In this document: one piece after another, positions 60-44,133 of the stretch
Layout of the letters: every line of letters begins with the position of its first letter
How positions within the stretch are numbered: the first letter of the stretch is position 1
Source of the DNA: an uncultured delta proteobacterium
Lineage (GTDB): Bacteria; Myxococcota_A; Polyangia; Fen-1088
NCBI GenBank assembly: GCA_963796685.1
Contig: CAWCMR010000013.1
Span: 256,001 to 320,000 of the forward strand
Reading direction: 5' to 3'
DNA: 64,000 nucleotides
Program-made: the position numbers and the translations under genes
Notes under the pieces: generated by a model
Databases searched by the model: none
Seen by the model: the letters and a program-made list of their open reading frames with translations, nothing else
Told to the model about the DNA's origin: nothing

Positions 60-392
60 CGCGTGCGGAGCCTACGCTTCGCCGGCTCTGGCGGCAGCGG
101 AGCATCGCGGGAGGGTTTGGGAACCCTCCCAGGGTTCCCAAGACAATAGCCGCGTGCGGAGCCTGCCGGCTCTGGCGGCAGCGGAGCATCGCGGGAGGGT
201 TTGGGAACCCTCCGAGGGTTCCCAAGACAATAGCCGCGTGCGGAGCCTGCCGGCTCTGCCGGCAGCGGAGCATCGCGGGAGGGTTTGGGAACCCTCCCAG
301 GGTTTCCAAGACAATAGCCGCGTGCGGAGCCTGCCGGCTCTGCCGGCAGCGGAGCATCGCGGGAGGGTTTGGGAACCCTCCCAGGGTTCCCA
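60..392 (+). repeat. Tandem array of ~4 copies of an 84-bp palindromic REP/BIME-like element
   Basis: Units start CGCGTGCGGAGC at 60 (91 bp, extra ACGCTTC), 151, 235 and 319. Each has a GCCGGC-TCT-G(C/G)CGGC hairpin and a TGGGAACCCT-N3-AGGGTT(C/T)CCA hairpin. Confidence 0.95.
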
Positions 393-401
393 TCATGTAG
401 A

Positions 402-1403
402 TTAGTAGCGCTGCCAGCCGGCCGGAGGCGCGGCGTAGCGACGCGGGGAAGACGGGAAGGGATCGGCGGTGCGGCGCAGCTCGGCGTCGGCCGGCCAGGG
501 GTAGACGCCGTCGACGTTCACGCCCATGGCCACCAAGCCGTCGTGGTCGTTGTAGCGAACGCCTAGGACCGCCGCCGGCACGGACGGATTGGCACGCACG
601 AACTCGACTTCTTGGATATGCGACGCAACCGCTTCGCCGAACTCGGTGCCCAGGCCCGGCCGTTCGCGACGGGTGGGGGCGTATCCGGCCGAGCCCGAGG
701 CGGCGGCTTTGCCTTTCGCTGCGCCTGAGCCATGGCCGCCAATGCCGCTCTCGGCGAGGCCGTCGGTCGGCGCGGCCGCTGGTGCCGGCGCCTGGGCGCT
801 GCGCTTGCTCTCGCTCGGCTCTCCCCGGTAGCCGAGCTCGCCGTCGCGGTAACCGTCGAAACAGCAGGGAGGAACCACGGGCAAGGGGCGTGGACGGTAG
901 ACGCGTTCGGGGAAGACCGCCAAACCAATCACGCCGACCTCCCGTGCGTTGCCCGTGCGCGCGGCATAGGAGTCTGCCACCGACGAGAAGCGGAAGGCCG
1001 CGGCTTGTGATTGCGACAGCCTCCACCCGTCGATGTCCACCTGGCCCCAGGCCGGAACAAGGTAGCCGCGCTTGTGCTGGAAATCGCCAGCCTTGCCGTC
1101 AATGGCGTCGCGTCCGTCGACCGTCACCACCGCCTCGATGCGGTGGCTGGAGTGGTTCTGCACCCGAATCACGTAGCGCTCGCCGGTGTGGCCCAGGACA
1201 TAGCTCTCGCCGTCGTGCCAAAAGGTCGGGGCGGGCGCGCCGTCGACCAGAACCTGGATCTCGTACCCGGACATTCTTGCCCGCAGTGGACGGCTTTCGG
1301 CATTGCGTGCGGGCGTCGCGCAGGCAACCAACCCAGCGACGAGAATGGCGAAACGGGAAAGCCGCGGCAGCGCGATGGATGACCTGGTGATGTTCTTCTT
1401 CAT
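402..1403 (-). CDS. Conserved hypothetical lipoprotein
   Basis: 333 aa; AGGAGG RBS; signal ending LVAC; conserved-looking domain (GERYxIRVxN, VDGRD, RGYLV, IDGWR, AFRF, SYA, GVIG) seen in uncharacterised bacterial proteins. Confidence 0.8.
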   Translation of the reverse strand: MKKNITRSSIALPRLSRFAILVAGLVACATPARNAESRPLRARMSGYEIQVLVDGAPAPTFWHDGESYVLGHTGERYVIRVQNHSSHRIEAVVTVDGRDAIDGKAGDFQHKRGYLVPAWGQVDIDGWRLSQSQAAAFRFSSVADSYAARTGNAREVGVIGLAVFPERVYRPRPLPVVPPCCFDGYRDGELGYRGEPSESKRSAQAPAPAAAPTDGLAESGIGGHGSGAAKGKAAASGSAGYAPTRRERPGLGTEFGEAVASHIQEVEFVRANPSVPAAVLGVRYNDHDGLVAMGVNVDGVYPWPADAELRRTADPFPSSPRRYAAPPAGWQRY

Positions 1404-1490
1404 GGCAACCTCCTGGATGGGTTGAACGCAGGGAGAAGAGAAAGGATCTGACGCGGGGGCGAGAATCGCCTGTGCTATACAAGCCCGCCA

Positions 1491-2504
1491 GTGTCAGACC
1501 CAACGCAGAAATCAGAAACGACCAAGCCAGGCGCCCTTCAGGTGGCCGGGACCGTCGCCATTTTGGGCCAGCCCAACGTGGGCAAGTCCACGCTGCTCAA
1601 CGCCATCGTGGGCGAGAAGCTCGCCATCGTGACGCCGAAGCCACAGACGACGCGCAACCGCATCGTGGGCGTGTGGAATGGCACCGCGACGACCGCCCTC
1701 GACGATCCGCGTGGACCGGGCCGTGAGGCGGGCGGGCAGATCGTCTTCGTGGACACGCCGGGGGTGCACGTGGCGCGCTCCCAGCTCAACCGCTTCATGG
1801 TGCGCGAGGCGATGGGGACGATCGATGGCGTGGACGCGGTCCTGATGGTCGTGGAGGCGCGCGAGAACGCCTCCGCGCTGTCTCCCTCGGCCAAGCTGCC
1901 GGAGGCCGAATCGTGGATCCTCGAGCGGCTGGTCGCGACGGGAAAGCCGGCCGTGCTGTGCCTGAACAAGGTCGACAAGGTGAAGGACAAGGGGCAGATC
2001 CTGCCGCTCATCGAGTGGTGGGGCAGGGCGGGCAAGTTCTCGGCGGTGGTCCCCACCTGCGCGACCCGCAAGAAGGGCCTGGAAGGCGTGGTCAAGGAGC
2101 TGCTTCGCCTGCTTCCCGAAGGCGCGCCGCTCTACGGCCCGGACGTGCTCACCGATCGGACCGAGCGCTTTCTCGCCGGCGAGTTGGTGCGCGAGCAACT
2201 GTTTTTGCGCCTGAAGCAAGAGCTGCCCTATGCCACCGCCGTGATGGTCGAGAACTGGCAAGAACGGGAGAAGGGCGACGTGGTGATCGACGCCAGCATC
2301 GTCGTGGATCGCGAAAGCCAAAAGGCCATCGTGGTGGGCAAGGGTGGCTCGATGATTCGCGACGTGGGCATGGCCGCGCGCAAGGAGATTACGGAGCTCG
2401 TCGGCCGGCCTGTGCACCTGCGCCTGAACGTCCGGGTCGAGGAGGGCTGGACGACTTCGCCGCGGGGGTTGGCGGAGCTCGGCTACGGCGAGGAGAAGGG
2501 CTGA
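1491..2504 (+). CDS. era: GTPase Era
   Basis: GQPNVGKS, PQTTR, DTPG, NKVD and C-terminal KH domain (IVVGKGG); GTG start. Confidence 0.96.
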   Translation: MSDPTQKSETTKPGALQVAGTVAILGQPNVGKSTLLNAIVGEKLAIVTPKPQTTRNRIVGVWNGTATTALDDPRGPGREAGGQIVFVDTPGVHVARSQLNRFMVREAMGTIDGVDAVLMVVEARENASALSPSAKLPEAESWILERLVATGKPAVLCLNKVDKVKDKGQILPLIEWWGRAGKFSAVVPTCATRKKGLEGVVKELLRLLPEGAPLYGPDVLTDRTERFLAGELVREQLFLRLKQELPYATAVMVENWQEREKGDVVIDASIVVDRESQKAIVVGKGGSMIRDVGMAARKEITELVGRPVHLRLNVRVEEGWTTSPRGLAELGYGEEKG

Positions 2505-3913
2505 TGCAACGGCGTGGCTCGCGCGAGGAGATGCTCGCAGAAGGACTGCCCGTGCTCTCCCTCGTGGGCCGGCCCAACGTGGGCAAGTCGTCTCTGTTCA
2601 ATCGTCTGGTCGGCGGTCGGCCGGCCCTGGTCGAGGATATGCCCGGCGTGACACGAGATCGCCGCTATGGCTTGTGTACGTGGGGCGCGGCGCGCTTTCG
2701 CGTGGTCGATACCGGCGGTTTGGATCCCAATGCGGTGGGTATTTTGGCTGCCATGCGGTCGCAGACTCTGCGCGCGGTGGATGAAGCCACCGTGCTGGCG
2801 ATGGTGCTCGACGCGGCAGAGGGCGTGACCGCGGTCGACGAGGCGGTCGCGCAGCTTCTGCGCCGCACGGGCAAGCCGGTTCTGGTCGTGGTCAACAAGG
2901 TGGATTCCTCGCTGCGCGACTCGGCGCTGGCCGACGGATACGCGCTCGGTTTCGAGCACGTTCTCGGCGTCTCGGCCAGCCACGGGCGCGGCATCCGCGA
3001 GTTGCTCGACGCGGCCGTGGCCGCGATGGGCGGCGAATCCGCGGCGGCGGCTTCGCCCGATACCGGCGCGGTGCCGGCGTCGACCGCCGAGGCGCCCATT
3101 CGGCTCGCCTTCGTGGGCAAGCCCAATGCGGGCAAGTCCTCGCTGGTCAATCGCCTTCTGGGCGAGGAGCGCGTTCTCGTGCACGACCAGCCCGGCACGA
3201 CCCGCGACCCCATCGACACTCCCTTTCAGGTCGGTGGGCAGGAATTCGTTCTCGTCGACACCGCGGGCCTGCGCCGCCGTCGCGCCATCGACACCCAGAC
3301 CGAGGCGGTGGCGGCCAAGATGGCGCGCGATCAACTGGCGCGCGCCGATGTGGTGGCCCTGGTCATCGACGCCGGCCTGGGAGCGACCGCTGAAGATGCC
3401 AAGCTGGCCAGCTTCATCGAGGAATCCGGCCGTGCGGCCATCGTGATTCTCAACAAGATGGATCTCGTTCGCCGCGCCGAAACCGACAAGCGCATCGAGG
3501 CCGCGCGCGAAGTCCTGGATTTCGTGGCCTATGCGCCATTCTTGACCATGTCGGCCTTCACCGGTCGCGGGGTCGGCGCAATTCCGGAAGTGGCGGCGCG
3601 CGTCTTCGCGGAATGGTCGAGAAGGGTTCCGACCTCCGCGCTGAACAAGAATTTCGAAGGGATCGTGGCTCGCCGTCTGCCGCCGTCGGGCCCTGCGGGC
3701 AAACACCTCAAGCTATACTTCATCACCCAGGCCGACATCCGGCCGCCCACCTTCTTCGTCAGCACCAACCTGCCCAAGGCGGTCGGTCATCCCTATCGCC
3801 GCTATCTCGTGAATCAGCTTCGCCAGATCTACGGATTCGAAGGTGCCCCGCTGCGACTGGCCCTGCGCGCAAACCGCAGCAAGCGCAAGTCGCAGCCCAA
3901 ACCCAAGGAATAG
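2504..3913 (+). CDS. der: Ribosome biogenesis GTPase Der (EngA)
   Basis: Two G-domains (GRPNVGKS..GVTRD..DTGG..NKVD; GKPNAGKS..GTTRD..DTAG..NKMD) plus KH-like tail; ATG overlaps era stop (TGATG); alternative start 2531. Confidence 0.96.
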   Translation: MQRRGSREEMLAEGLPVLSLVGRPNVGKSSLFNRLVGGRPALVEDMPGVTRDRRYGLCTWGAARFRVVDTGGLDPNAVGILAAMRSQTLRAVDEATVLAMVLDAAEGVTAVDEAVAQLLRRTGKPVLVVVNKVDSSLRDSALADGYALGFEHVLGVSASHGRGIRELLDAAVAAMGGESAAAASPDTGAVPASTAEAPIRLAFVGKPNAGKSSLVNRLLGEERVLVHDQPGTTRDPIDTPFQVGGQEFVLVDTAGLRRRRAIDTQTEAVAAKMARDQLARADVVALVIDAGLGATAEDAKLASFIEESGRAAIVILNKMDLVRRAETDKRIEAAREVLDFVAYAPFLTMSAFTGRGVGAIPEVAARVFAEWSRRVPTSALNKNFEGIVARRLPPSGPAGKHLKLYFITQADIRPPTFFVSTNLPKAVGHPYRRYLVNQLRQIYGFEGAPLRLALRANRSKRKSQPKPKE

Positions 3914-4043
3914 TCCGCTAGATTTTTTGCCGGGATTCGGGCCACAATACCCCAGCCCAAGCCCGCCCGCGACGGCGCGCCGCCGGCCAAGCCGGCGGGC
4001 TCCCCAAGCGGCTCGCCAACTGCAGAACCTAGAGGAGACCGAC

Positions 4044-4592
4044 ATGCGCAAGTTCCTAGTGGCCGTCACCCTCAGCACCCTGTTTTTTGTCCCCGCCGCG
4101 GCGCGCGCGGGATTTCTCGCCGAAGCCTCGCTTGGCCAGGGTTACCAGACATCGCCCACCCCACGCGCGTGGGAGCGGCTCAATCTGGAGATCGCACCAG
4201 GGTACGCACCTTCGCTGCCCGTGCTGTCCATGTTCCGCCTCCAACTCGGCATCGTGACCGACTTTGGCAACAAGGCCGGCACCAAGACCGACCTGGAGCT
4301 GCGGCCCATGATTTCCGTCGTCCCACCCATCTTTCCGCTCTACGGGCGTGTGATCTTCGTGGTGAACAACCTCTTAGAGCGCGGGGGAACCAAGCGCGAT
4401 ATCCAGTATGGCGCCGCCCTGGGAGCGCGCATCGGCTTGCCCTCGATTGGCATCATTCCCTCCATGGGTGTCTTCGCCGAGGTGGCCGCCTTGCCAGGCA
4501 AGCGCGACTTCGTCGACAGCACCACCTTGGCCACCAGCTCGAAGACCGCGTGGATCGTCGAAGGACGCGTCGGCGCGTATCTGGATTTTTAG
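4044..4592 (+). CDS. Putative small outer-membrane beta-barrel protein
   Basis: GGAG RBS, signal peptide MRKFLVAV...AARA, amphipathic strands, C-terminal YLDF beta-signal. Confidence 0.75.
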   Translation: MRKFLVAVTLSTLFFVPAAARAGFLAEASLGQGYQTSPTPRAWERLNLEIAPGYAPSLPVLSMFRLQLGIVTDFGNKAGTKTDLELRPMISVVPPIFPLYGRVIFVVNNLLERGGTKRDIQYGAALGARIGLPSIGIIPSMGVFAEVAALPGKRDFVDSTTLATSSKTAWIVEGRVGAYLDF

Positions 4593-4593
4593 A

Positions 4594-4707
4594 TAGCAGG
4601 ATGGGGTACGAAACCAGGGTGCCCCCGCCCGCGACGGAGTTCATGATCCCCGCGCACGTGCCGCCGAGAAAGATCGCAAGCGAATCGAATTCAAGGAGGG
4701 TGTGCAT
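4594..4707 (-). pseudogene. 5' remnant (~38 codons) of a TauE/SafE (TSUP) family exporter
   Basis: Translates MHTLLEFDSLAIFLGGTCAGIMNSVAGGGTLVSYPILL (AGxxNxxAGGGxL motif of TauE N-termini), then runs into the 3' end of the convergent gene. Confidence 0.7.
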
Positions 4708-4720
4708 TGATGCCCAATGT

Positions 4721-4755
4721 GGGTGGCGGGTGGCGGGTGGCGGGTGGCGGGTGGC
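4721..4755. repeat. Heptamer tandem repeat (GGGTGGC)x5
   Basis: Five perfect copies, intergenic. Confidence 0.95.
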
Positions 4756-4839
4756 CGGTAACCGGGCAGGACGGTAGCAAGAGGGCACCGGCAGCGCCAT
4801 CGCGACTATGCGGCGCGATGGTGCTACGATTACCAGGCC

Positions 4840-5919
4840 ATGAAGCGACTCACCCTCGGCGCAGCCATGTTGTTCGTTCCACTGGCCCTGGCAGCCCGGC
4901 CAGCTCAGGCCCAGATCACCATCACCCCTGGTCCCGACGCGGCGGCATTTGCGAGCAGCCTCGGGATGACCACGGACCAGCTGACCAGCCTCATCACCAG
5001 CAAAGTGGATGGTCTGTTTCAGGTGACCAACGTGAATTCGTTTCTTCGCGACTTCCAGAATGCCCAGAGTTTTTCGAGCAAAGGCCTGGGCGTCGACTAT
5101 GCCTCCGAGGCCACGCTGGCCGAGGTCGGAGCGACCCTCAGTCTGGCGAGCAACATCGACAAGGCGTACAAGCCCACGGGCTCGTACACCGATCCGCCCA
5201 TCCAAGGCGGCGGCGCGAACTTCTCGCTCATGGGCGGGCTTGGGCTCGGTCTCTTCGGCCTGGATCCCGTGATGATCTTCGCCAACTGGTTCAAGGGCAG
5301 CGCCACCCTGGGCCAGCTCGATGGCGACTACCAGAATTGGGGGCTCCACGGCCAGTTCCGCCTCCTCGGACCCACGCGCAGCATGTCGGCCACCAAGTTG
5401 CTCGTCCGATGGGGTGGCATCGCGATCACCAGCGGCGTCGACTACGCGCACGTCGGGCTGAGCACCAGCAGCAACATCTCGTCGAAGTTCGACGTCGCCC
5501 AGGGCGCACCCGTCACGGTCACCAGCGCCGGCAATCTCAAATTCACCCTGGATCAGACCACGTGGAGCGTTCCGCTCGAGATCACCACCAGTCTTCGCCT
5601 TCTGTCCCTCATCACCGTGTACGGTGGGCTCGGCTTCGACTGGCAACTGGGTGGCGGTTGCGATTTGCATATCCTCATGTCGCAGGCAAGTCTGAGCGGT
5701 CAGGTGCAGACCCCGTCGGGGACCGTGCCCTATAGCAACCTCGGCACCGTGGACGTCCGAGCCGATGGACACGTCAGTCCCAGCTCGGCCAGGGTGCGGG
5801 AGATCGCGGGGCTCCAACTCAGCATCCTGGATGTCATCCGCATCTTCGCCCAGGTCAATACCACCGCCAGCTCGCCTGTCCTGACCAGCCTGGCCATGGG
5901 CTTGCGTCTGGCGATCTGA
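4840..5919 (+). CDS. Secreted/outer-membrane beta-barrel protein (Lsa36/DUF6588-like, tentative)
   Basis: 359 aa, signal peptide AQA, many alternating beta-strands; motifs RWGGIAITSGVDY and SVPLEITTSLRLLxLxTVYGGLG recalled from Lsa36-like proteins. Confidence 0.65.
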   Translation: MKRLTLGAAMLFVPLALAARPAQAQITITPGPDAAAFASSLGMTTDQLTSLITSKVDGLFQVTNVNSFLRDFQNAQSFSSKGLGVDYASEATLAEVGATLSLASNIDKAYKPTGSYTDPPIQGGGANFSLMGGLGLGLFGLDPVMIFANWFKGSATLGQLDGDYQNWGLHGQFRLLGPTRSMSATKLLVRWGGIAITSGVDYAHVGLSTSSNISSKFDVAQGAPVTVTSAGNLKFTLDQTTWSVPLEITTSLRLLSLITVYGGLGFDWQLGGGCDLHILMSQASLSGQVQTPSGTVPYSNLGTVDVRADGHVSPSSARVREIAGLQLSILDVIRIFAQVNTTASSPVLTSLAMGLRLAI

Positions 5920-6067
5920 GCGTTCGCGCGTGCCTCGGAGAGCCGCGCGCGGTTCAGGCGGGCGGTCGGCTCCCCTGCGCCACGGTGCCTCTGATGAGGT
6001 AACGCATGGTTCGAGAGTGGGTAGCGCGGATCTACGTCGGGGCCACAAGATCAGCGTCGGTAGACCG

Positions 6068-6096
6068 TTGACAGGGGAGGTGTGAGCCCCTACGCT
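6068..6096 (+). promoter_or_regulatory. Sigma70-type promoter of the HU gene
   Basis: TTGACA-N17-TACGCT, ending 37 bp before the ATG. Confidence 0.7.
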
Positions 6097-6133
6097 TGGC
6101 GGCTGTTCTTCCATCGCTGACAAGGGCACAACG

Positions 6134-6472
6134 ATGACTAAGGCCGAGCTTATCGACAAGGTAGCAAGTCGCAAGGATCTCCCCCGCAACTTGCCCAAGA
6201 AGGTCTACGCCCGAATCATCGACGCCGTGTTTACCGAGGTCGGAGACTACTTCATTCGCGCACGGCCCAGCTTGTCGAATCCGCCCCGGCTCAGCTATCC
6301 CGGCTTCGGCACCTTCACCAAGCGCCGCCGCAATTCCCGTACGGTTCGCAACCCCAGCACGGGCGAGCCCATCGCCATCCCGGCCCAGTGCACGGTGGTG
6401 TTCACGCCTGGCCAGGAACTGAAGAACCTCATCAACCGGGTGCCGTCCAAGAACGCGTCGTCGGCGGCGTAG
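6134..6472 (+). CDS. HU/IHF family DNA-binding protein
   Basis: MTKAELIDKVA...GFGTF...RTVRNPSTGEPIAIPA. Confidence 0.93.
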   Translation: MTKAELIDKVASRKDLPRNLPKKVYARIIDAVFTEVGDYFIRARPSLSNPPRLSYPGFGTFTKRRRNSRTVRNPSTGEPIAIPAQCTVVFTPGQELKNLINRVPSKNASSAA

Positions 6473-6485
6473 CGTCGGTTTTGAA

Positions 6486-6507
6486 GGTTTTGAAAGCCGC
6501 CCCCTAC
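6486..6507 (-). repeat. Degenerate GTAG-type REP overlapping the sulfatase-gene stop codon
   Basis: Minus strand GTAGGGGGCGGCTTTCAAAACC resembles the intact REP at 17707. Confidence 0.5.
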
Positions 6508-8717: not shown

Positions 8718-8922
8718 CGAATTGGGACAGGAGACTAGCTCGCGAGATGGGCTGGACGCCAAGAAAAGCGAGGCCCACTCTTGACCGCCGCGGGCTGACC
8801 GAGCAACCTCCGCTTCGTGCGGTCAACCAAAACTCGAGAAGCCCTGGTCTCTCCCCTCAGCAGCTCTTCCACTCGCCCTGCTATGCTTCGCTTTATCCTG
8901 CCAAAAGCCGCAGGGCAGGGCC

Positions 8923-14599: not shown

Positions 14600-16555
14600 A
14601 TGGTCGCGTTGATCGCCGCGAACGCCGACATCGCCGAGGAAGTCGAACTGGGGCGGACTCTCCTCGTACAGGGGCACCTGGACACCGCGCAGCGGGTCCT
14701 TCTCAAGATCTGCCAGGCGCAGCCCGAGTGCGCGGAGGCATTTCGGGTTTTGGCGCTGGTGCTGAGCAAACGAGGCGATGAGCGCCGTGCGCGCCCGCTT
14801 CTCGACTATGCAGAAGAGCTCGACGCCCAACGGACGCGGGAGATTCCGACAGCCCTCGACGATGTTCCGTCCGATGCCGAGACCAAGCAGAACCGGTTGG
14901 CCATGCAGACCACGGCTCAAGTCAAGCCGCCCGCAAAGCCAGCTGGCGCGCATGCTCCCGTCGTATCCGAACCGGTGGGACACCTCTTGGCGCCGAAGGC
15001 ACCGCTTTCCCTACCGGCGAGCTTACCCGTGCAAGCGGTTTCTGCTCCGGCGTCGGCGAATCCAGTGCCGAGGTCGCGCGCAGGGTGGGCGATCTTTGCG
15101 CTGCTGTTGTGCGCGGCCCTGGCTGCAGGCGCGGCGGCGGCCTACAAGCAATACGGCCGGACCACGCCTGCGCGTCCGAGCCCTCGCGAAGAGCTGGACC
15201 GTTCTCTCGCCTCGGGAACGGTCGAACACCTCCTGCGGGCTCGCGATGTGGCACGGATGGCACTCGAGAGCGGCGTGGCCGATGCCGACTCCCTGGCGCG
15301 CCTGGGTCTTCTCAATGCTTTCCTGATGGACGACTACGGGATCGAGGCCAAGAAAGACGCCGAAGACGCCCTTCGCCGCGCCGAGATGTCCCCCGAGACG
15401 AACAAGGATAGAGCCGCTCTCATCGCCAGCGCTCGTTCACTGCTTGCGCTTGCGGCGGGTGATCGTGCGGCCGCGGGGAAGCTTGCCGATACGGCGGTCG
15501 CGCTTACGGCACCGGACCCTGGCGCCTTTGCACTGCTGGCTTCGGCTCGCGTTCGCACGTTGGCCGGAGATGTCGAGGGCACCGCGCGGGATCTGGACCG
15601 GGCCATGGGGCTCGCCCCCGAGTTGGCCCCGGTGGTCGTGGATTGGGCGACCTCTCGGCTCGATGGTGGCGATCCCGTGGCCGCCCGTCGAGCGATGGTG
15701 ACCTTGCTCGAGCGGAACCAGGACAATTCGAAGGCACTGCTCTTGCTCGCGGAGGCCCAGTGCGCCTTGGGCGAACCCGACTGGGTGAAGAGCTTGGAAA
15801 AGGCCTGCCGAAGCGACGCGAAGATTTCGCGCAGCATTCGCTCGGCCTGCGCGGTCGAATCAGCCTTGCAGGCACGCATCGAAGGCGATCGTGCCGGGGC
15901 CCTCCGCAAAGCCAAGGCGATAGCGCAGACCTCCGAGGATGCCCAGGTGCTCGGCACGGCTTCCCTCCTGCTTTCGCTGCTCGGCGAGACCGACCTGGCC
16001 GAAGAGGTCCTCGATCGGGCGCGCAAAGTCGCCGCCCCCGCCAATGTGCCCCTGCAATGGGCGGACTTGTCCATTCGACTGAGCCGGGGCGAAGCACCGC
16101 AGCTCTCGCGTGTCCTGGAACGTCCGGCAGGGCCCGAGCGCGATGTGGTGGCGCTGAGGGCCGCCTATGCGCGGGCCGGAGCTGCCGGATTGGCCACCGC
16201 GCTCAAGGCGCTTCCTCCGGGAATCCAGGACATCGACGGGGATGTGCGCGCCTATGCCGTCCTGGCTCGAGAGGGCGAACCTTCCAAACCAGAGCTGACG
16301 GCGATGGAGAAACGCGTGGAAAAGGGCAGCCCTGTGTTTTCCTACGTGCTGGGCCTCTTGGCCGCGCGTGACAAAGACTTCAAATTGGCGGTGCGGAGGC
16401 TGGACAAGGCATTGTCCTGGCACGGTGCCGCTTGTCAGGCCGCGCTGGCGTACTTGGATGCGGTCAAGCATGCGGGGCGTGGGGTGCAACCCAACAAGGC
16501 CGGACTGCGCAATGTGCATGCGCACAACGCCAAATGCCCCTTGCCCGAGATGTAG
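14600..16555 (+). CDS. Membrane-anchored TPR-like helical repeat protein
   Basis: N-terminal TPR, Pro/Ala linker, single TM (WAIFALLLCAALAAG), Ala/Leu-rich helical repeats. Confidence 0.75.
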   Translation: MVALIAANADIAEEVELGRTLLVQGHLDTAQRVLLKICQAQPECAEAFRVLALVLSKRGDERRARPLLDYAEELDAQRTREIPTALDDVPSDAETKQNRLAMQTTAQVKPPAKPAGAHAPVVSEPVGHLLAPKAPLSLPASLPVQAVSAPASANPVPRSRAGWAIFALLLCAALAAGAAAAYKQYGRTTPARPSPREELDRSLASGTVEHLLRARDVARMALESGVADADSLARLGLLNAFLMDDYGIEAKKDAEDALRRAEMSPETNKDRAALIASARSLLALAAGDRAAAGKLADTAVALTAPDPGAFALLASARVRTLAGDVEGTARDLDRAMGLAPELAPVVVDWATSRLDGGDPVAARRAMVTLLERNQDNSKALLLLAEAQCALGEPDWVKSLEKACRSDAKISRSIRSACAVESALQARIEGDRAGALRKAKAIAQTSEDAQVLGTASLLLSLLGETDLAEEVLDRARKVAAPANVPLQWADLSIRLSRGEAPQLSRVLERPAGPERDVVALRAAYARAGAAGLATALKALPPGIQDIDGDVRAYAVLAREGEPSKPELTAMEKRVEKGSPVFSYVLGLLAARDKDFKLAVRRLDKALSWHGAACQAALAYLDAVKHAGRGVQPNKAGLRNVHAHNAKCPLPEM

Positions 16556-16680
16556 ACGACGCATGATTCGCTGCCGTCATGCCGCAGTGAAGTGTCGGGA
16601 TGACGGGTGGTCGTGGATGTAGACGGTTTACCGTGGCTGTAAGGCGTCTTCGCCGTCGTGGCCAACGGCAGTTACAACCG

Positions 16681-16704
16681 GCCACGGCCACGGCCACGGC
16701 CACG
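16681..16704. repeat. Hexamer microsatellite (GCCACG)x4
   Basis: Four perfect copies just upstream of the 80-bp array. Confidence 0.9.
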
Positions 16705-16718
16705 ACCTTCTGCGGCTA

Positions 16719-17068
16719 TCGCGGGATTAGGGTTTGAGGGTTCCCATTGCTCGCGTAGGCGTAGCCGGGCTTTGCCCGGCGACGCCATAGCGCGGGAGGG
16801 TTTGGGAACCCTTTGAGGGGTTCCCATTGCTCGCGTAGGCGTAGCCGGGCTTTGCCCGGCGACGCCATAGCGCGGGAGGGTTTGGGAACCCTTTGAGGGG
16901 TTCCCATTGCTCGCGTAGGCGTAGCCGGGCTTTGCCCGGCGACGCCATAGCGCGGGAGGGTTTGGGAACCCTTTGAGGGTTCCCATTGCTCGCGTAGGCG
17001 TAGCCGGGCTTTGCCCGGCGACGCCATAGCGCGGGAGGGTTTGGGAACCCTTTGAGGGTTCCCATTGC
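16719..17068 (+). repeat. Tandem array of 4 complete copies (80,80,79,79 bp) plus a truncated lead copy of a palindromic REP/BIME-like element
   Basis: TTCCCATTGC recurs at 16741, 16821, 16901, 16980 and 17059; GCCGGGC-TTT-GCCCGGC and TGGGAACCCT...GGGTTCCCA hairpins; core CGCGGGAGGGTTTGGGAACCCT identical to array 60-392. Confidence 0.95.
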
Positions 17069-17114
17069 AATAGGGTTGACCTGTGAGCCTGGGCAGGCTA
17101 AATCCGCCCATCCA

Positions 17115-17687
17115 ATGGCTTCGTACGACACATCCGACATCCGCAAGGGGCTCAAGGTCATGCTGGACGGCAATCCGTTCACGGTGGTCGAGTTCCAATT
17201 CATCAAGCCTGGCAAGGGCGCGGCCTTCACGCGCACCAAGCTCAAGAACCTGCTCACGGGCGGCGTGATCGAACGCAACCTGCGGTCGGGTGAGAAGCTC
17301 GAGCCGGCCAATGTCGAGACCAAGTCGATGCAGTATCTGTACAAGGAAGGCGACTCGTTCGTGTTCATGGACACAAGCACCTACGACCAGGTTCACATCC
17401 CCGACGAGACCATTGGCGACGACGCGCGCTTCATGCCCGAACAGATCGTCGTCGAGGTGTTGTTCTTCAACGAGCGCGCCGTCGGCGTGACGTTGCCCAA
17501 CTTCATCGAGCAGAAGGTGCTGGCGACCGAGCCCGGGTTCCGCGGCGACACGGCCACGGGGGTCACCAAGCCCGCGAAGATCAGCACGGGTGCTTCGATC
17601 AATGTGCCGTTGTTCATCAACGAGGGCGACACCATCAAGATCGACACGCGCTCGGGCGAGTACCTCAAGCGCGTCGGACGTGCCTAG
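17115..17687 (+). CDS. efp: Elongation factor P
   Basis: KPGKGAAF loop, MQYLY, GFRGDTA, VPLFINEGD..IDTRSGEY. Confidence 0.97.
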   Translation: MASYDTSDIRKGLKVMLDGNPFTVVEFQFIKPGKGAAFTRTKLKNLLTGGVIERNLRSGEKLEPANVETKSMQYLYKEGDSFVFMDTSTYDQVHIPDETIGDDARFMPEQIVVEVLFFNERAVGVTLPNFIEQKVLATEPGFRGDTATGVTKPAKISTGASINVPLFINEGDTIKIDTRSGEYLKRVGRA

Positions 17688-26404: not shown

Positions 26405-26407
26405 GGG

Positions 26408-34899: not shown

Positions 34900-34911
34900 G
34901 AGAAGAGAGCA

Positions 34912-36305: not shown

Positions 36306-36471
36306 GCTTCCGTAAGTGTGAAGGTTTCGACGATCGGCTCACCTCCAGCGATGAATTCCCGGTCGACTGCCCTTCGACGAGAGCGTCCCAGCCACCTATT
36401 TGCGTTTCGGATCAGGGCCGCGCTTCTTACTACTTGCGGGAGGCGCCACGACGTGGCTAGCTTCGCCTGCC

Positions 36472-37627: not shown

Positions 37628-37632
37628 TTCCC

Positions 37633-37706
37633 TGTGGATAAGTTCGAGAAGGTTCTGTGTTTTCAACAGGTTGCCTGATGGCACTCTGTGGATGAATCGT
37701 GGAGAA
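37633..37706. promoter_or_regulatory. Cluster of DnaA boxes in the prfB-lysS spacer
   Basis: TGTGGATAA (37633-41, perfect), TTTTCAACA (37660-68), TGTGGATGA (37687-95), CGTGGAGAA (37698-706). Confidence 0.6.
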
Positions 37707-37716
37707 AGACTAGCCC

Positions 37717-39261
37717 ATGTCCGATGAACGAGAGCTGATCGCCGATCGCGAGCGCAAAGTCAACGAGCTCCGACAAGCCGGCCAGAACCCCTACGCCAAC
37801 GGGTTTTCGCCCACCCACACCGCGCGCGACGTGCACGCCTGGTTCGCCGCGGGCAACGTGCCGGGCGCGAATCCCCTGACGGACGAGCCCAGAGCCGAGA
37901 GGTACTCCGTCGCCGGGCGCATCGTGGCCTTGCGCAGCTTTGGCAAGGCCGCCTTCGCCAAGGTGCGAGACCGCTCGGGCGAGATCCAGGTGTGGGTCAA
38001 GCAGGACGTGGTGGGGGAGAAGGCTTTCGGGCTGTGGCGGTCCATGGAGCGCGGCGACTTCATCGGCGCCACCGGCCCCGCGGTGATCACCAAGACCGGC
38101 GAGCACACCCTCTTGGCTGAACGACTTGCGATCCTGACCAAGGCTATTCGGCCTCTGCCCGAAAAATTCCACGGCCTGCAGGACATGGAGATCCGCTACC
38201 GCCAGCGCTACGTCGACCTGGTGGCCAACCCGGAGGTGCGCGAAGTCTTCCTGAAGCGCACCGCCATCATCAAGCTCTTGCGCCGGTTTCTCGACGCTCG
38301 GGATTTCGTCGAGGTCGAGACGCCCTCGATGCACACCATTCTCGGCGGCGCGGCGGCGCGGCCGTTCCGCACCCACCACAACGCGCTCGACATGGATCTG
38401 ACCATGCGCATCGCGCCCGAGCTCCACCTCAAGCGCTTGGTGGTGGGCGGCTTCGATCGTGTCTACGAAATAGGCCGCAACTTTCGCAACGAGGGGCTAT
38501 CGCGCCAGCACAACCCCGAGTTCACCATGCTGGAGTTCTACCAGGCCTACGCGACTTACGAAGACCTGATGGCGCTCACCCAGGAGCTGTTCGCCGAGCT
38601 GGCGCGCGAGATCTGCGGCAGCCCGGTCATCACCTACGGCGGGGTGCAGGTCGACCTCGGCGCCTTCGAGCGCATCCCCATGAAGGATGCCATCGTCATG
38701 GCGGTGGGGAAGGGGCTCCTGCCCGCGGGACTCGAACGCCCCATGCTCGACGACGAGGCAGCGCTTTTGAAGTGGATTGCCGAGTCGGGCACGCTCGAAC
38801 GCAAGGACGAGCTCGCGGCGGTTCTGCGCAAGTGCGAATCGCACGGCCACCGCGTGGGGGCGCTCTTCGACTACGGCGGCGAGCTGGCCCTGCCTCCCGA
38901 AAAGCCGGTCTTCGTGGTCGAGTATCCGGCCGAGACCTCGCCGCTGTCCCGACGCAACGACGCCGATCCCGGCCAGGTCGATCGCTTCGAGCTCTTCATC
39001 GTCGGCCGCGAGCACGCCAACGCCTTCTCCGAGCTCAACGACCCGGCGGACCAGCGCGCGCGCTTCCAGCGGCAGGTCGAAGCCAAGGCCAAGGGTGCCG
39101 AGGAAACCATGGACTACGACGAGGACTACTGCCGTGCCCTGGAGTACGGCCTTCCTCCCACGGCCGGTGAGGGCATCGGCGTCGACCGACTGGTCATGCT
39201 CCTCACCGATCAAGCCTCCATCCGGGACGTCATTCTATTTCCGCTCATGAGGCCTGAATGA
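37717..39261 (+). CDS. lysS: Lysine--tRNA ligase (class II)
   Basis: OB-fold (RSFGKAAF), RYRQRYVDL, GGAAARPF, RIAPEL, FRNEG, HNPEFT, YGLPPTAGEGIGVDRL. Confidence 0.98.
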   Translation: MSDERELIADRERKVNELRQAGQNPYANGFSPTHTARDVHAWFAAGNVPGANPLTDEPRAERYSVAGRIVALRSFGKAAFAKVRDRSGEIQVWVKQDVVGEKAFGLWRSMERGDFIGATGPAVITKTGEHTLLAERLAILTKAIRPLPEKFHGLQDMEIRYRQRYVDLVANPEVREVFLKRTAIIKLLRRFLDARDFVEVETPSMHTILGGAAARPFRTHHNALDMDLTMRIAPELHLKRLVVGGFDRVYEIGRNFRNEGLSRQHNPEFTMLEFYQAYATYEDLMALTQELFAELAREICGSPVITYGGVQVDLGAFERIPMKDAIVMAVGKGLLPAGLERPMLDDEAALLKWIAESGTLERKDELAAVLRKCESHGHRVGALFDYGGELALPPEKPVFVVEYPAETSPLSRRNDADPGQVDRFELFIVGREHANAFSELNDPADQRARFQRQVEAKAKGAEETMDYDEDYCRALEYGLPPTAGEGIGVDRLVMLLTDQASIRDVILFPLMRPE

Positions 39262-39286
39262 GCATCCCCTGCCACAGGCGCATTCG

Positions 39287-40771
39287 ATGAACGGGCTCGG
39301 CTTCGAATGGTTCGTCGCCTGGCGCCACTTGCGCGATCCCGAGCGACGTTCGCGCCGAGCCATCGCGCTCAAAGTCGGCCTCGGCATCGTCGTGCTGGCA
39401 GTCGCGGATCTCATCTATCTCAAGGTCCACGGCACGCCCATGCACGATCCCAACGGGTTCTTCACTGCCCACCCCGATCCGCTCTATGAATGGCTGCACA
39501 TTGGCGGAGTGATTGGCTTGATCGTGGGGGGGATCGTCACCTTCCTGGGCATGTTGCTCGCCAGCTTCACCGTGTTCACCGCCATCTCGGTCTTCGGTGT
39601 ATTCCTCGGGACGTCGGCGCCCATCCTGGCCCTGTCGGTCATGTCGGGTTTCGAGGCCGACCTGAAAGGCAAGATCCGCGGCGCCAAGGCCGACGTGGTG
39701 GTGACCGTTCCCGACGATCGGCAGTTTCTAGACTGGCAAGTCGTACGCCGGAAGATCCTCTCCGTCCCCGGCGTGCGGGCCGCCACGCCCTTTCTCGAGG
39801 CCGAGGTCATGGTTCGCTCCGGGTCATCGCCAGCGGGCGTCGTCTTGCGCGGCATCGACCCGGCGTCGGCTGCCTCGGTCCTGGATCTGGCGCACACCAC
39901 GCGCGATTGCAACATCGACGATCTGGCCCATCCCGAGCGGGTGGAACGCGATCCGCTGACGCCCGACAATGAGAAGGACGCGCCGGCCATCATCCTCGGG
40001 GAAGAGCTGTACATGCGTACCCTGCGTGTGTTTCCCGGCAGCCTGGTCGACGTCGTGTGCCCCCTGTGCAAGATGGGGCCGTCGGGACCCATGCCCGGCC
40101 TCAAGAGCTTTCGCGTGGCAGGGCATTTCTACAGCGGCATGTACGAGTTCGACTCCAAGCTGGCCTACGTCGCGCTCAAGGAGGCACAGGCCTTCCTGCG
40201 CATGCCTGGCGAGGTGACCGGCATCGACGTGCGCGCGACCGACCCCGACGACGCGCCTCGGGTCGCCACGGCAATCCAGTCCGCGCTCGGGAGCGGCTTC
40301 GAGGCCGAGTCCTGGGAGGACTTGAACAAGGGGTTGTTCATGGCCCTGCGCCTGGAGAAGATTGCCATGTTCGTGGTGCTCACCTTCATCGCCCTGGTGG
40401 CGTCCTTCTCCATCATCTCGACCCTCATCATGATGGCGACCGAGAAGGCGCGCGAAGTGGCCATTCTCAAGGCCATGGGGGCCGAGGACGGCGCTGTCCA
40501 GCGGGTCTTCGTGGCCGAAGGGATTTACATCGGGTTCATCGGACTGTTCGTCGGCGTCGCCACCGGAATCGCGGGGTGTCTGCTCATCAAACGCTACGGC
40601 CTACCTCTGCCCACGGACGTGTATTACATCACGCAGTTGCCCGTCGTGATGCGTACCGGCGAGATCCTCACCGTGGCCGCCTCGGCCCTGGTGCTGTGCT
40701 TTCTCGCCACCGTCTATCCCGCCTGGCTGGGCGCACGCATGCGGCCGGTCGACGGGTTGCGATACGAGTAG
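39287..40771 (+). CDS. Lipoprotein-releasing ABC transporter permease (LolC/E family)
   Basis: [45 protein letters not shown]; upstream of lolD and bamA. Confidence 0.92.
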
Positions 40772-40773
40772 AC

Positions 40774-41556
40774 ATGCCATTCCCTGCGTTGACAGCGGAG
40801 GAGCCCATCGGTACGGTGCCAATCGCAATGACTTCATCCGAATCGCCAGCGCCAACCGAACCAACCGCCAAGAGCGGCGGAGCGCGGGTGGTGGTGCGCG
40901 ATCTGTGGAAAGTCTTCAGCCATGGTGGCCGCCGCATCGAGGTTCTGCGGGGAATCGACCTCGACTTGCAGCCTGGCGCCCTGGTGTCCATCGTCGGGGC
41001 CTCGGGCGTGGGCAAGTCGACGCTGCTCCATCTGCTCGGCACCTTGGACGAGCCGAGCAAGGGCAGCATCGCCTTCGACGGCGTCGATGTCACCTCGCTG
41101 GCGCCGGGAAAGCTGGCCAACTTTCGCAATCAGTCCATCGGCTTCGTGTTCCAGTTTCATCATCTCTTGCCCGAGTTCACCGCGCTCGAGAACGTCATGA
41201 TGCCCGGTCTCATCGCCCGTCTCCCACGGGCGGAGTCCGCCCAGCGGGCCGAGGCCATGCTGGCGCGGGTGGGGCTGGCCGAGCGTCTGTCGCATCGGCC
41301 GGGCGAGCTCTCGGGCGGTGAGCAGCAACGGGTTGCTCTGGCGCGCGCGCTTCTGCTTTCGCCCCGCCTCTTGCTCGGTGACGAGCCGACCGGAAACCTC
41401 GACACCAAGACAGGGCAAGCGATGCACGACCTGTTCTTCGAGCTCAACCGCGAGCTGGGCATGACGCTGCTTTTGGTGACCCACAACAACGAGCTGGCCG
41501 GCCGAGCCTATCGCAAGCTGCGCATGATCGACGGCCAGGTGGTGGAGGAAAAGTGA
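40774..41556 (+). CDS. lolD: Lipoprotein-releasing ABC transporter ATP-binding protein LolD
   Basis: [43 protein letters not shown]; start 40774 or 40828. Confidence 0.93.
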
Positions 41557-44012
41557 AGCGAAGGCTACCGGTTGTTTGCGCCCTTTGCCTCTTCGCTTTG
41601 TCGGCCGCGCCGCGTGCCGAGGACGACGAGCCCGCCGCGCCCACGCGCCTGCGCGCACCCGATCTCTCCACGACGGAAAAGGCCCCGGCGCGTATCGTCC
41701 TACCCAAGCTGAACGTCATTCGTATCCATTTCCGCGGCAATCGCAAGGTCGAGGACGATGCCCTGCGGGTCAATCTCAAGCTCAAGCCCGGCATGGTGCT
41801 CAGCAAGGAGATTCTCCAGGAGGACGTGCGCACCATTTGGCGCCTGGGCTACTTCGAAGATGTGCAGGTCGAAACCGCCGAGGCCGAGGGTGGTCTGGTG
41901 GTGACCTTCGTGCTCAAGGAAAAGCCGGCCATTCGCAAGATCTACATTTCGGGTCACGACGAGGTCGGTCTGACCAAGATCAACGAGGTGCTCGACCTCA
42001 AGAAGGAGCAGGTCCTCGACCTGGCCAAGGTCAAGAAGAACGTCGAGAAGATCCGCGAGTTGTACTTGCAGCGCGGGTTCTACATGGCCGAGGTGGACTA
42101 CGAGCTGCACCGTGACAGCCCGGGCGAGGTTGACGTGTACTTCCGCGTGCACGAGAACAGCAAGGTCGAGATCCGGCGGGTCAACTTCACCGGCAACAAG
42201 GCCGTCACCGACGCCGAGCTGCGCGGCGTGATGTTGACCCAGCCGGGCGACATCTTCTCGGCGCTGACCTCGTCGGGGACCTATCGCGAGGATGTCTTCC
42301 AGCGCGACATCATGCTCATCCAGAGCTACTACTTCGATCGTGGCTACATCAACGTGAAGGTCGGCGATCCGCGCATGGAGCTGTCGGCGGATCGCCATTC
42401 CATGTACATCACCGTGGCCATCGAGGAGGGACAACAGTTCCGCATCGGCAAGCTCGACGTCAAAGGCGAGCTGCTCGACAGCCGCGAGGCCTATCTGCGG
42501 CGCTTGCAAGCCAAGCCCGGCGACATCTTCAATCGCACCGAGGTCGCGCAGGATGTGCAGAACATCGCCGATCTGTACAAGGACAAGGGCTACGCCTACG
42601 TCAACTCGACGCCCGAAACCCGCGTCGACGACAAGCAGCGCCTCGTCGACCTCACCTTCGACATCCAGAAGGGGCCGCTGGTTACCTTCGAGCGCATCAA
42701 CATTCGCGGTAATACCAAGACGCGCGACAAGGTCATCCGGCGCGAGATGCGCATCTACGAGGGCGAGCAATACAGCCAGCACGGGCTCGACTATTCCAAG
42801 CGCCGGGTCAACGCCTTGGGATTCTTCGACAAGGTCGAGGTCACCACTAAGCGTGGCTCCAGCGACGACACCATGGACGTGAATGTCGAAGTGGGCGAGC
42901 GCCAGACCGGCGCCTTCCAAATCGGCGCCGGCTTTTCGTCCGTCGAGTCGTTCATCTTCCAGGCGCAGATCTCCCAGAACAACCTCCTGGGTCGCGGCAC
43001 GTCGGCCACGATACAAGCGCAGGTGTCGGGGTTGCGGCAGCTCTACATGTTCCAGTACGAAGATCCCTATTTCTTCGACACCAACTGGACCTTCGGCTTC
43101 AACCTGTTCAACCAGCAGACCTATTACCTCAACTTCGACCGCAAGTCGACCGGCGGCAGCCTAACCTGGGGCTACATGCTGACCGACACCATTCGCACCT
43201 ACCTGACCTACACCTTGCAGGACGTTGGAGTCGCCACGGGAGGCCGCAGCAACCTTTTCACCGGAGGCCAACGCAGCCCCCTGCCGTCCGGCTCGCTGGC
43301 CAACCTTCTTCACTCGGGCATCATTTCTTCGACGCGCGTTTCCCTGGCGCACGACACGCGCGACGATCGCATGTTTCCGCACAGCGGCTGGTACAACACG
43401 GCGTCCGCGGAATTCGCCGAGCCGGCCTTTCTTTCCCAAAGCCAGTTCACCCGCTACGAGGGGGCGCTTCGCTATTACTACCCCCTGCCGGCGGGGATGA
43501 CCTTGCGCCTCAAGGCCGAGGCAGGGCTCATCACCAGTCGCGATCCCCAGGGCGTGCCCATCTTCGAGCGCTACTTCGTGGGAGGTATCTACGATATCCG
43601 CGGGTTTGCCCTGTACTCCCTTGGCCCCAAGATTCTCGTGCCCAACGCGCAAGATCCGGATTCTCCCCTCCAGATGTTCTCCATTGGCGGAAACCTGCGC
43701 ACCCTCGCCAAGGCGGAGGTCGAGATACCGATTTTCGAGAAGATGGGGATCCGTGGCGTGGTTTTTACCGACCTCGGCAATGCCTACAACCTGGAAGCGC
43801 AATACTGCCGGCTCAAGCCCGCATGGGCGGACGTGTCGGTGGATCCGTGCGTGAAGCTGTTCCCGCTCACCAGCCTCCGCAGCAGCTGGGGCTTCGGCTT
43901 CCGCTGGTTCTCACCCATCGGTCCTCTGCGTTTCGAGTGGGGTTTGCCGTTCCACACCCTGCCGGGTGAGGACAGTATTGTCTTCGAGTTCACCATCGGC
44001 AACGAGCTGTAA
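41553..44012 (+). CDS. bamA: Outer membrane protein assembly factor BamA
   Basis: POTRA repeats ([13 protein letters not shown]), barrel with IRGF loop, [19 protein letters not shown]. Confidence 0.97.
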
Positions 44013-44061
44013 CCTGAAGGTGCCGGTGGGGCACGGAGGCGACGACGGCCGACGATTGACT

Positions 44062-44133
44062 GCGGAACCCTGAAGGGTTCCGCTCCTCCCGCGATGTGGG
44101 CTTCGGCGAGCAAAGCCCGCCTGCGCCCACGCG
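44062..44133 (-). repeat. Solo inverted copy of the two-hairpin element family
   Basis: Minus strand CGCGTGGGCGCAGGCGGGC-TTT-GCTCGCCGAAGCCCACATCGCGGGAGGA-GCGGAACCCT-TC-AGGGTTCCGC, colinear with the array units. Confidence 0.85.

Follow-up and report, generated by a model that had tools for sequence, protein, structure and literature searches.

The window analyzed here is a stretch of 64,000 nucleotides (nt) that corresponds to positions 256001-320000 of contig C13 in the genome of an uncultured bacterium of the class Polyangia. This genome, called G000, comprises 7.31 Mb in 26 contigs, has a G+C content of ~65% and is 88.6% complete. Three sites of the window carry copies of a short non-coding repeat with two hairpins: a tandem array at 60-392 (array A), a second tandem array, placed by the first-pass annotation at 16719-17068 (array B), and a solo unit at 44062-44133. 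This annotation, which was made from the sequence alone, reported the three sites and their common two-hairpin layout, and both are found at these positions together with all the stem variants and loops that it listed. Positions without a contig name refer to the window, and those elsewhere in G000 carry the name of the contig.

Architecture of the repeat unit

As read from the sequence, the unit is ~80 nt long and consists of a hairpin H1, a purine-rich linker of the GGGAGGG type, a hairpin H2 and a short tail. H1 is composed of a CGCG/CGCG clamp, a mid stem, a symmetric 3x3 internal loop in which G-N-A faces G-N-A, an inner stem and a 3-nt loop. H2 is a palindromic hairpin of 10 bp, in which a 3-nt loop separates the arms TGGGAACCCT and AGGGTTCCCA. 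At the three sites, the inner stem occurs as CTGCCGGC/GCCGGCAG, GCCGGGC/GCCCGGC and GGCGGGC/GCTCGCC, the mid stem as TGC/GCA, GGC/GCC and TGGGC/GCCCA, and the terminal stem as TGGGAACCCT/AGGGTTCCCA or GCGGAACCCT/AGGGTTCCGC. The facing internal loops are GGA/GGA and GCA/GAA, with GTA/GAC instead in array B.

Array A, on the forward strand, contains four head-to-tail units separated by the 10-nt spacer agacaatagc, and is detected by Tandem Repeats Finder with a period of 84, 3.7 copies and 97% matches. Unit 1 (60-140) contains a 7-nt insertion and a G-G mismatch in H1, and scores 60.1 bits (C13:256054-256150) with R1, a covariance model built on one unit per locus. Unit 2 (151-224; 74 bits) has the H2 loop CCG and a G-G mismatch in the inner stem of H1, unit 3 (235-308; 80.6 bits) combines a perfect H1 with a single mismatch in the 3' arm of H2, and unit 4 (319-392) scores 82.5 bits. 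The H2 end of unit 4 lies 9 nt from the stop codon of a minus-strand gene (402-1403); this stop codon is located 11 nt before GGAACCC, and the unit is antisense to the gene. Array B, also on the forward strand, gives a period of 80, 4.2 copies and 99% matches with the same program. It begins with a partial copy (16720-16747) that consists of a degenerate linker and the 3' arm of H2, followed by four units. Units 1 (16752-16826) and 2 (16832-16906) each have one extra G in the 3' arm of H2, and units 3 (16912-16985) and 4 (16991-17064) score 86.3 and 96.4 bits respectively. The solo unit (44062-44133, minus strand; 74.3 bits) is a variant form with the 5-bp mid stem TGGGC/GCCCA, the loops GCA/GAA and one G-T pair in the inner stem. 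Its H2 has the stem GCGGAACCCT/AGGGTTCCGC and a 4-nt loop, and the unit is located 50 nt behind the stop codon of a gene at 41553-44012.

The stem variants are thus as the first-pass annotation gave them; small corrections to its description are the G-G mismatches in H1 of units 1 and 2 of array A, the H2 mismatch in its unit 3, the insertion in its unit 1, the G-T pair of the solo unit and the loops of array B. The terminal-hairpin pattern gives 6 matches in the window against 0.00 expected, and none of 100 shuffled sequences reaches 6, so that a chance origin of the window hairpins is excluded. When the three sites are folded on both strands, the z-scores of the six folds are −3.6 to −6.9 as RNA and −4.3 to −8.1 as DNA.

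Conservation of the fold

The alignment of the copies in G000 (A1) contains 67 units, one per locus; of 73 units chosen, 5 are not included and 1 weak reversed match was dropped, and four long composite units had been left out before the choice. RNAalifold predicts both hairpins from this alignment. In a structure of 24 pairs, 94.2% of 1604 cells pair, as compared with 84.2% in shuffles (none of 500 reaches the observed value), a control that overstates the significance because the aligned copies are related. The controls in which the partners are slid by 1-3 columns give 36-45% paired cells. Changes on both sides of a pair occur in 14 of the 24 pairs and 130 cells. Relatedness of the copies does not affect the slid controls or the count of pair types. 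The alignment of 47 copies from other genomes (A2) gives 97.1% paired cells, as compared with 87.3% in shuffles and 32-44% in slid controls, and 12 of the 24 pairs are changed on both sides, but A2 was fitted to the structure of R1 and therefore leans towards the model. The covariation that the first-pass annotation expected of a larger alignment is present in both sets.

H2 is mostly invariant: its arms hardly change, while the central 3 nt are free and form 12 different loops in the 67 copies. In divergent copies, however, H2 changes in a compensatory manner, with double changes at 6 of the 10 pairs and paired deletions such as GGACCC/GGGTCC. H1 occurs in several register subtypes, and the distance between the two halves of the clamp is nonetheless 35 nt in 48 of the 67 copies. 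The facing G-N-A/G-N-A strands, in which the first-pass annotation had suggested sheared G.A pairs, are retained in 32 of the 50 rows in the main register, and the loop is fully Watson-Crick in only 6. Both hairpins show strong compensatory change.

Copy number and distribution

The H2 hairpin occurs 117 times in G000. An nhmmer profile of 52 distinct units gives 232 matches in this genome, which are reduced to 204 at 102 loci when the two-strand duplicates caused by the near-palindrome are dropped. R1 matches 149 of the 150 candidates scored, indicating that the genome contains at least 149 units at ~100 loci. The further genomic copies anticipated from the window are therefore found, in G000 as well as in its relatives. 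The units are either single or arranged in head-to-tail arrays of up to 11 nearly identical copies (C6:15675-16552). Units are nearly identical within one array, and the arrays differ among themselves.

R1 detects the family in all 12 congeneric genomes searched, in 30 of 36 genomes of the taxonomic family and in both genomes of one further family (f12); the 22 genomes searched that represent 14 other families of the class give no matches. Because at most 72 candidates were scored per genome, the counts for the relatives are floors. When an exact 25-base pattern was searched against one genome for each of 185,579 species, 27 stretches matched, and the titles of all 27 name Polyangia, Myxococcales or metagenome-assembled genomes of delta- or proteobacteria. 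The family pattern gives no match in viral contigs. In the search of sequencing runs, no run contained more than 0.18 of the sampled words, and no claim on habitat or expression is drawn from it. These results identify the family as a high-copy, modular repeat that is specific to a lineage of Polyangia. The family fills a measurable share of the intergenic DNA across this lineage of uncultured Polyangia from soil, peat and wetland, and it probably adds to the fragmentation of metagenome assemblies, because many copies of the relatives are located at contig ends.

Empty and filled orthologous sites

The site of array B upstream of efp is empty in five congeners (G010, G001, G007, G006 and G009), in which the upstream stop codon is only 0-4 nt from the TTGACC sequence of the efp promoter region. 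In G000, ~510 nt including the four units are inserted at this site, ending with ...cccattgcaata directly before GGGTTGACC. The tail ttgcaata of array B (17065-17072, forward strand) belongs to the inserted DNA, because the empty sites join the stop codon to TTGACC, which starts at 17073 in the window. The closest congener, G002, whose efp is 95% identical, has the same right junction as G000 and other internal modules. Its upstream gene is a different, Cys-rich one (locus L127, G002:C14:369727-373334, compared with window 16556-17110), and therefore the repeat marks a breakpoint of synteny or rearrangement. At this site, G005 and G003 each carry a single unit together with a left half-module, and the junction differs; in G006 and G012, a copy is located downstream of efp instead.

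A likely efp promoter region (17073-17106) is located directly behind the array tail and consists of TTGACC, 17 nt and TAAATC. It is conserved in all 12 congener sequences, while everything upstream varies, and it was not flagged by the consensus scan.

The second comparison is provided by a pair of convergent genes at C13:435629. The spacer is filled in G000, G002 and G010, and measures only 6-10 nt between the stop codons in G001 and G005. The empty sites in relatives that the first-pass annotation suggested looking for are present at both loci, showing that the elements are DNA that was inserted or deleted. The units lie close to stop codons because they occupy spacers that initially measured only a few bases. 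Because random insertion would rarely fall in so small a gap, some targeting is hinted at. The number of units per locus varies between species, so that the arrays could serve as typing markers.

Nested and composite modules

The family is embedded in a mosaic of other repeats. A second non-coding element of 120-130 nt, which starts with AGTACCGCC and ends with GGTTTCAGGTC, splits H2 exactly between the loop and the 3' arm. This element is complete in five cases, and its left and right junctions are found 13 and 27 times respectively; in G000, sites are located at C20:~13000, C25:929333-929480, C25:1647734-1648083 and C25:~326600. The left half-hairpin that precedes many solo units is H2 split by this element. 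Because the second element sits so precisely in it, H2 looks like a preferred insertion target, similar to the REP (repetitive extragenic palindromic) loops for IS1397, an insertion sequence that reportedly, in work cited by PMC3116915, inserts into the palindromic units of REP elements.

In composite units, a further module separates the 3' clamp from the linker. The genome also contains higher-order tandem arrays, whose periods are ~196 to 372 bp and whose long units each include one family unit, complete or partial, and other modules. These arrays are located at C21:64107-66411, C13:10990-11884, C15:369136-371783 and C25:2112058-2113377, with periods of ~372, 196, 250-263 and 350-363 bp respectively. 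Upstream of one solo copy, all of the sequence over 400 nt is repeated at least 23 times in the genome. The solo unit of the window is itself, with its flanks, part of a larger repeat that is 90% identical to C25:316732-316870. The first-pass annotation had left the choice between a mobile unit, similar to REP sequences, bacterial interspersed mosaic elements (BIMEs) or MITEs (miniature inverted-repeat transposable elements), and a structured RNA. The empty orthologous sites and the nesting with other modules directly support the mobile half of this alternative, and the RNA half is the less probable one.

Position relative to genes

The context of the loci was counted with a crude gene caller based on G+C at third codon positions (5445 calls, 78% coverage). 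Of 101 loci with two flanking genes, 73 stand outside the gene calls; the remaining 28 overlap them, probably because the calls start too far upstream (the first start codon was used) or because arrays with a period of 81 or 84 form open frames. The 73 loci are located between convergent genes in 27 cases, between tandem genes in 41 (23 antisense, 18 sense) and between divergent genes in 5. The H2 end faces the 3' end of a gene at 50 of the 73 loci and is within 15 nt of it at 19. Among 27 called genes with H2 at most 140 nt downstream, the unit is antisense in 20, sense in 4 and of undetermined orientation in 3, and the stop codon is located 2-5 nt before GGAACCC in 12. A family locus is located within 60 nt of 7 of the 50 tRNA genes, in antisense orientation in 3 and in sense orientation in 4. 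The array of 11 units starts 3 nt behind a tRNA-Ser gene and sits between two tRNA-Ser genes (C6:15587-16746).

Two other tRNA loci have a similar appearance: at C10:105684-106235, units are located between and after two tRNA-Ser genes, and at C8:19908-20131, a tRNA-Trp gene is located between two units. A gene at C6:16553-17989 was considered as one flanked by inverted copies and was rejected, because it is a small Cys-rich open reading frame (ORF) of the secreted type and the array there is located between the two tRNA-Ser genes. Replication orientation gives no convincing trend: the sign of the local GC skew is matched at 60 loci and opposed at 42.

The contact with stop codons raises the question of small genes. 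Mycobacterial interspersed repetitive units (MIRUs) are tandem intergenic units of 40-100 bp without dyad symmetry that contain small reading frames. The Polyangia family resembles MIRUs in that its units are tandem and intergenic, have ends that overlap stop or start codons and could be used as markers of variable number; it differs in that the fold is conserved and not a frame. On the complementary strand each unit starts with ATG immediately after the preceding stop codon, and on this reading the units might be short, translationally coupled genes. In 12 genes, ATGGGAACCC indeed follows the stop codon at 0-2 nt (with one overlap by one base), and several arrays with a period of 81 or 84 give open frames, but the period is 79, 80 or 82 in most arrays. 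Codons are altered by the changes in the H2 loop, and the peptides encoded by the different H1 subtypes are unrelated, while pairing is kept; conservation of the arms extends over all three codon positions. The small-ORF reading is rejected because of the unit period and the substitution pattern, and its probability is negligible.

Strand symmetry of the pairing

Selection on one RNA strand would tolerate G.U and not A.C mismatches. In the 21 pairs of stable register, 15 G.T and 12 A.C mismatches are found. Both strands fold; the forward strand folds 2.6-5.6 kcal/mol better than the complementary strand as RNA, and the two are nearly equal as DNA. No RNA strand is singled out, because G.T and A.C mismatches are about equally frequent and both strands fold. 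This result does not sustain the strand polarity that had been suggested from the facing loops. The complementarity is kept in a strand-symmetric way, and polarity is confined to the linker and the purine-rich strands of the loop.

Several of the above observations can also be explained if the units are functional cis-acting RNA modules or small RNA genes, such as terminators without a U-tract, 3' stabilizers or tRNA processing sites, in which case the covariation would result from selection on RNA structure. The units are enriched at gene 3' ends, rare between divergent genes, and adjoin stop codons and tRNA genes, but their orientation to the upstream gene is mixed, both at the loci between tandem genes and at the tRNA genes. 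The better fold of the forward strand as RNA speaks for this explanation; against it, mismatches of the G.U type are not in excess over A.C mismatches. A scan of 16500-17200, which includes array B, gives no promoter-like and no terminator-like site, and H2 is not followed by a T-run. When the whole window is searched with Rfam at gathering thresholds, no match is obtained; in E-value mode every match of array B is under the threshold of its family, and the best one scores 25.9 bits against a threshold of 124. Unit-like pieces are present in the contigs of four metatranscriptome runs (174 pieces from one run), but contigs of RNA libraries show neither strand, ends nor transcription, and their depth sums many genomic copies. 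The higher conservation of orthologous copies than of flanking coding DNA and the conserved non-Watson-Crick internal loop are consistent with an RNA, whereas nested insertions and arrays with as many as 11 identical units represent the behavior of a repeat and not that of RNA genes. Taken together, the RNA explanation is possible but rather unlikely.

The strand symmetry would also be expected for arrays of sites for a DNA-binding protein, in which H2, as two inverted half-sites of 9-10 bp around 3 variable bases, would function as an operator or nucleoid-protein site that is kept for chromosome organization or regulation. The nearly invariant H2 arms around three free positions and the high conservation of orthologous copies agree with such a site. 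Compensating changes in the H2 arms at 6 of 10 pairs, including paired deletions, indicate however that the fold is preserved and not a fixed recognition sequence, and H1 varies freely in sequence while its fold is kept. Copies are in addition rare between divergent genes (5 of 73), where promoters are located, and no candidate protein is at hand, no search aimed at one having been made. This makes a protein-binding role for the arrays highly improbable.

Search for an associated transposase

The first-pass annotation proposed that the units might be served by an HUH Y1 enzyme or a REP-associated tyrosine transposase (RAYT) encoded elsewhere. PF01797 gives no match in G000 at E ≤ 0.001, in a genome that is 88.6% complete, and its occurrence in the relatives is patchy, with IS200-type copies in G010 and weak matches in frames of 300-390 amino acid residues elsewhere. 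One RAYT-like protein has 309 residues and is matched in 11 of the 12 congeners. It has an HUH motif, and scores 26.4 bits with PF01797 (cut-off 23) and 45.6 bits with NF047646, the model of REP-associated tyrosine transposases (positions 16-144 of 146). G000 retains two fragments of its gene (C11:159579-159671 and C8:528488-528793), and the first 31 codons of the gene survive in a frame of 56 residues. It also encodes an intact distant HUH paralogue at C5:209773-210720, with 24% identity and 32 bits on NF047646. The scores of both the 309-residue protein and the C5 paralogue are far below the NF047646 cut-off of 80 bits.

If the family were a true REP/REPIN system, a single-copy RAYT (an HUH Y1 transposase) would mobilize the units by recognizing single-stranded H1 or H2. 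The wide occurrence of the 309-residue protein in the congeners, and the gene fragments and paralogue in G000, would fit this model. R1 (E ≤ 0.01), however, detects no unit within ~1.5 kb of the HUH genes at the loci of ten relatives or at the C5 gene, the H2 pattern is absent from all HUH loci examined, and the flanks of the C5 gene are not repeated. The sole R1 match near any HUH sequence is at locus L114, where one of the G000 fragments is ~400 nt from a unit. The distributions of protein and repeat also differ: the 309-residue protein has no match in the repeat-rich genomes G012, G013, G015, G027 and G031 (70-72 scored matches each), and G025 has its gene and no repeats. Units in both orientations are found at only 2 of 102 loci after the two-strand duplicates are dropped, and the arrays are head to tail, without REPIN doublets. 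REP sequences are marked by a conserved GT[A/G]G head, located at the hairpin's 5' foot. At columns 10-13 of alignment A1, behind the 5' clamp, GTGG (16), GTAG (15), GTTG (12), GTGC (8), GTGA (7) and others (9) are found, so that 31 of the 67 copies have GT[A/G]G but 12 have T at the third position of GTNG and 24 have other combinations. A REPIN-type system is a distinctly unlikely explanation. The absence of PF01797 from G000, of copies beside the distant HUH genes and of HUH matches from several repeat-rich genomes means that the involvement of a RAYT is not supported; an enzyme could still act in trans from an unflanked gene.

Two other observations concern HUH genes. G010 has seven matches to IS200-type Y1 transposases (E ~3e-41) on seven contigs, for example at C9:76556-76915; six score identically in frames of 169 residues, and one scores slightly lower in a frame of 150 residues. 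This looks like an active element of the IS200/IS605 family, found in one congener only, and no family unit is present at the single G010 locus examined. In G004, many fragments of the 309-residue HUH gene form a cluster on contig C16.

Nature of the repeat

We consider that the three sites are probably copies of a non-coding, selfish or semi-domesticated repeat of the same kind as REP/BIME and BOX elements. The family is closest to REP/BIME in its behavior and to BOX in its architecture, and it has the features of REP/BIME in the wide sense: it is short, high-copy and extragenic, and forms a stable hairpin. Such an element would enter new sites as DNA, and a candidate structure-specific enzyme supplied in trans would probably recognize its hairpins when they are folded, either single-stranded or in a cruciform. 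Arrays may then grow and shrink by slippage or by unequal recombination between H2 copies, by which the units within one array would be homogenized. Pairing between the stem strands might persist because the fold is required by the enzyme, or because templated correction acts inside the palindrome. Effects on the host would be secondary, with putative roles as 3'-end hairpins that block read-through or exonucleases and as sites of rearrangement.

Several points weigh against this interpretation. No mobilizing enzyme is found among the HUH/RAYT genes searched. At the two comparisons of filled with empty sites, no target-site duplication is definable, and none of the compared loci has an insertion recent enough to reveal the exact transposing unit; gain and loss could in principle result from illegitimate recombination and deletion, and not from transposition. 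Sequence conservation is higher in the orthologous unit than in the coding DNA next to it, with 88 of 90 positions identical in G010 as compared with 519 of 761, and 80 of 90 in G002 as compared with 599 of 750, which is more readily reconciled with a selected function in the host, or with gene conversion among the copies, than with neutral junk DNA. Because the internal loop is unpaired in most copies, and templated correction of the palindrome alone would erase it, a specific recognition of some kind, whether of DNA or RNA, is implied. The unit-like pieces in RNA libraries, the lean of alignment A2 towards the model, the relatedness that inflates the shuffle control, and the crude gene calls with 28 overlapping loci count on the same side.

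A more specific proposal is that a machinery outside the known transposase classes reads the clamp, the G-N-A/G-N-A loop, the H1 triloop and H2, and inserts the element behind stop codons and tRNA 3' ends, while the host retains copies, better conserved than the genes around them, as bidirectional hairpin stops without a U-tract in the narrow gaps of a closely packed gene order. The family would then represent a domesticated partnership of repeat and enzyme in one myxobacterial lineage. We regard this proposal as speculative and unlikely.

Enterobacterial BIMEs are alternating inverted palindromic units of 35 nt. The family shares with REP/BIME, in particular with BIME-2 arrays, the form of high-copy extragenic hairpin mosaics, a variable tandem number, a location behind genes or between convergent genes, and a second element in the hairpin loop. 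It differs in that it has no sequence similarity to them, consists of direct two-hairpin units of 80 nt, and has no associated RAYT and no firm GTAG head. MITEs derive from a DDE insertion sequence, whose terminal inverted repeats they match, and are bordered by a target-site duplication; the unit can be read as inverted ends AGGGTTCCCA...TGGGAACCCT around a 3-nt spacer. Integron attC sites have the core sites RYYYAAC/GTTRRRY, an adjacent cassette gene and an integron integrase; by eye, the H2 arms TGGGAAC/GTTCCCA do not fit this core consensus.

REPINs are two REPs in inverted orientation that are served by a single-copy RAYT (PMC3337134). The family resembles the REPIN-RAYT systems of Pseudomonas and other bacteria (PMC3337134, PMC3116915) in that it is non-autonomous, persistent, apparently vertical in one lineage and present in every species of the genus, with the hairpin kept. 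REPINs flank their RAYT, however, whereas the units here follow one another head to tail, without copies beside any HUH gene examined. The BOX element of Streptococcus pneumoniae, as described in PMC3049150, has the structure boxA-(boxB)n-boxC, in which a variable tandem array of boxB is located between end modules, and its terminal inverted repeats are similar to those of an insertion sequence. The present family is likewise an intergenic, modular and strongly folded repeat that lacks its own transposase and varies in array length, with a left module, 1-11 units and a tail; this likeness is one of architecture only, without homology. It differs from BOX, as described there, in its unrelated sequence, its GC-rich host and a repeated module that itself consists of two hairpins with a conserved internal loop, and no matching insertion sequence is found here, in a search limited to the list of orphan arms. 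SPRITE, another S. pneumoniae repeat described in PMC3049150, resembles a Rho-independent terminator with a uridine-rich tract, whereas the Polyangia units have no T-run, and the scan of array B gives no terminator-like site.

Literature searches for REP in myxobacteria and for RAYT in Myxococc, which did not extend to supplementary files, give nothing relevant among the matches listed. The 9-nt arm of H2 is found in unrelated sequences only, among the matches listed, and two 19-nt hairpin strings are absent from the literature, supplementary files not being covered. In agreement with the first-pass annotation, which did not recognize a named family, no Rfam match and no published description are found in these searches. 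The family looks like an undescribed one of the REP/BIME/BOX type rather than a novel class of system. As a general phenomenon, small interspersed repeats that form hairpins and stand behind genes have been known for decades. What distinguishes it is the conserved non-Watson-Crick loop, the constant clamp span of 35 nt, the occupation of tiny spacers, the conservation above that of neighboring genes and the lack of a RAYT partner. Hairpin complementarity and the internal loop are kept at ~100 loci and in many species, although the RAYT by which REPs are explained in other bacteria is lacking, which makes the family a test case for the biology of repeats. If an enzyme recognizes the fold, it would offer a new handle on the recognition of single-stranded or cruciform DNA.

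Other repeats near the window sites

A perfect microsatellite, (CGGCCA)x4.3, is located at 16679-16704, just upstream of array B and within the DNA that is missing from the empty efp sites. The contigs from RNA libraries give a very high summed depth for this sequence, probably because it is a common low-complexity word. The gap of 790 nt behind the gene that ends at 44012 contains, next to the solo unit, a patchwork of other repeats (44134-44802). Within this patchwork, internal copies pair 44168-44201 with 44552-44585, 44205-44253 with 44378-44426 and 44298-44377 with 44557-44637, and a piece of 116 nt is 95% identical to C5:199769-199884.

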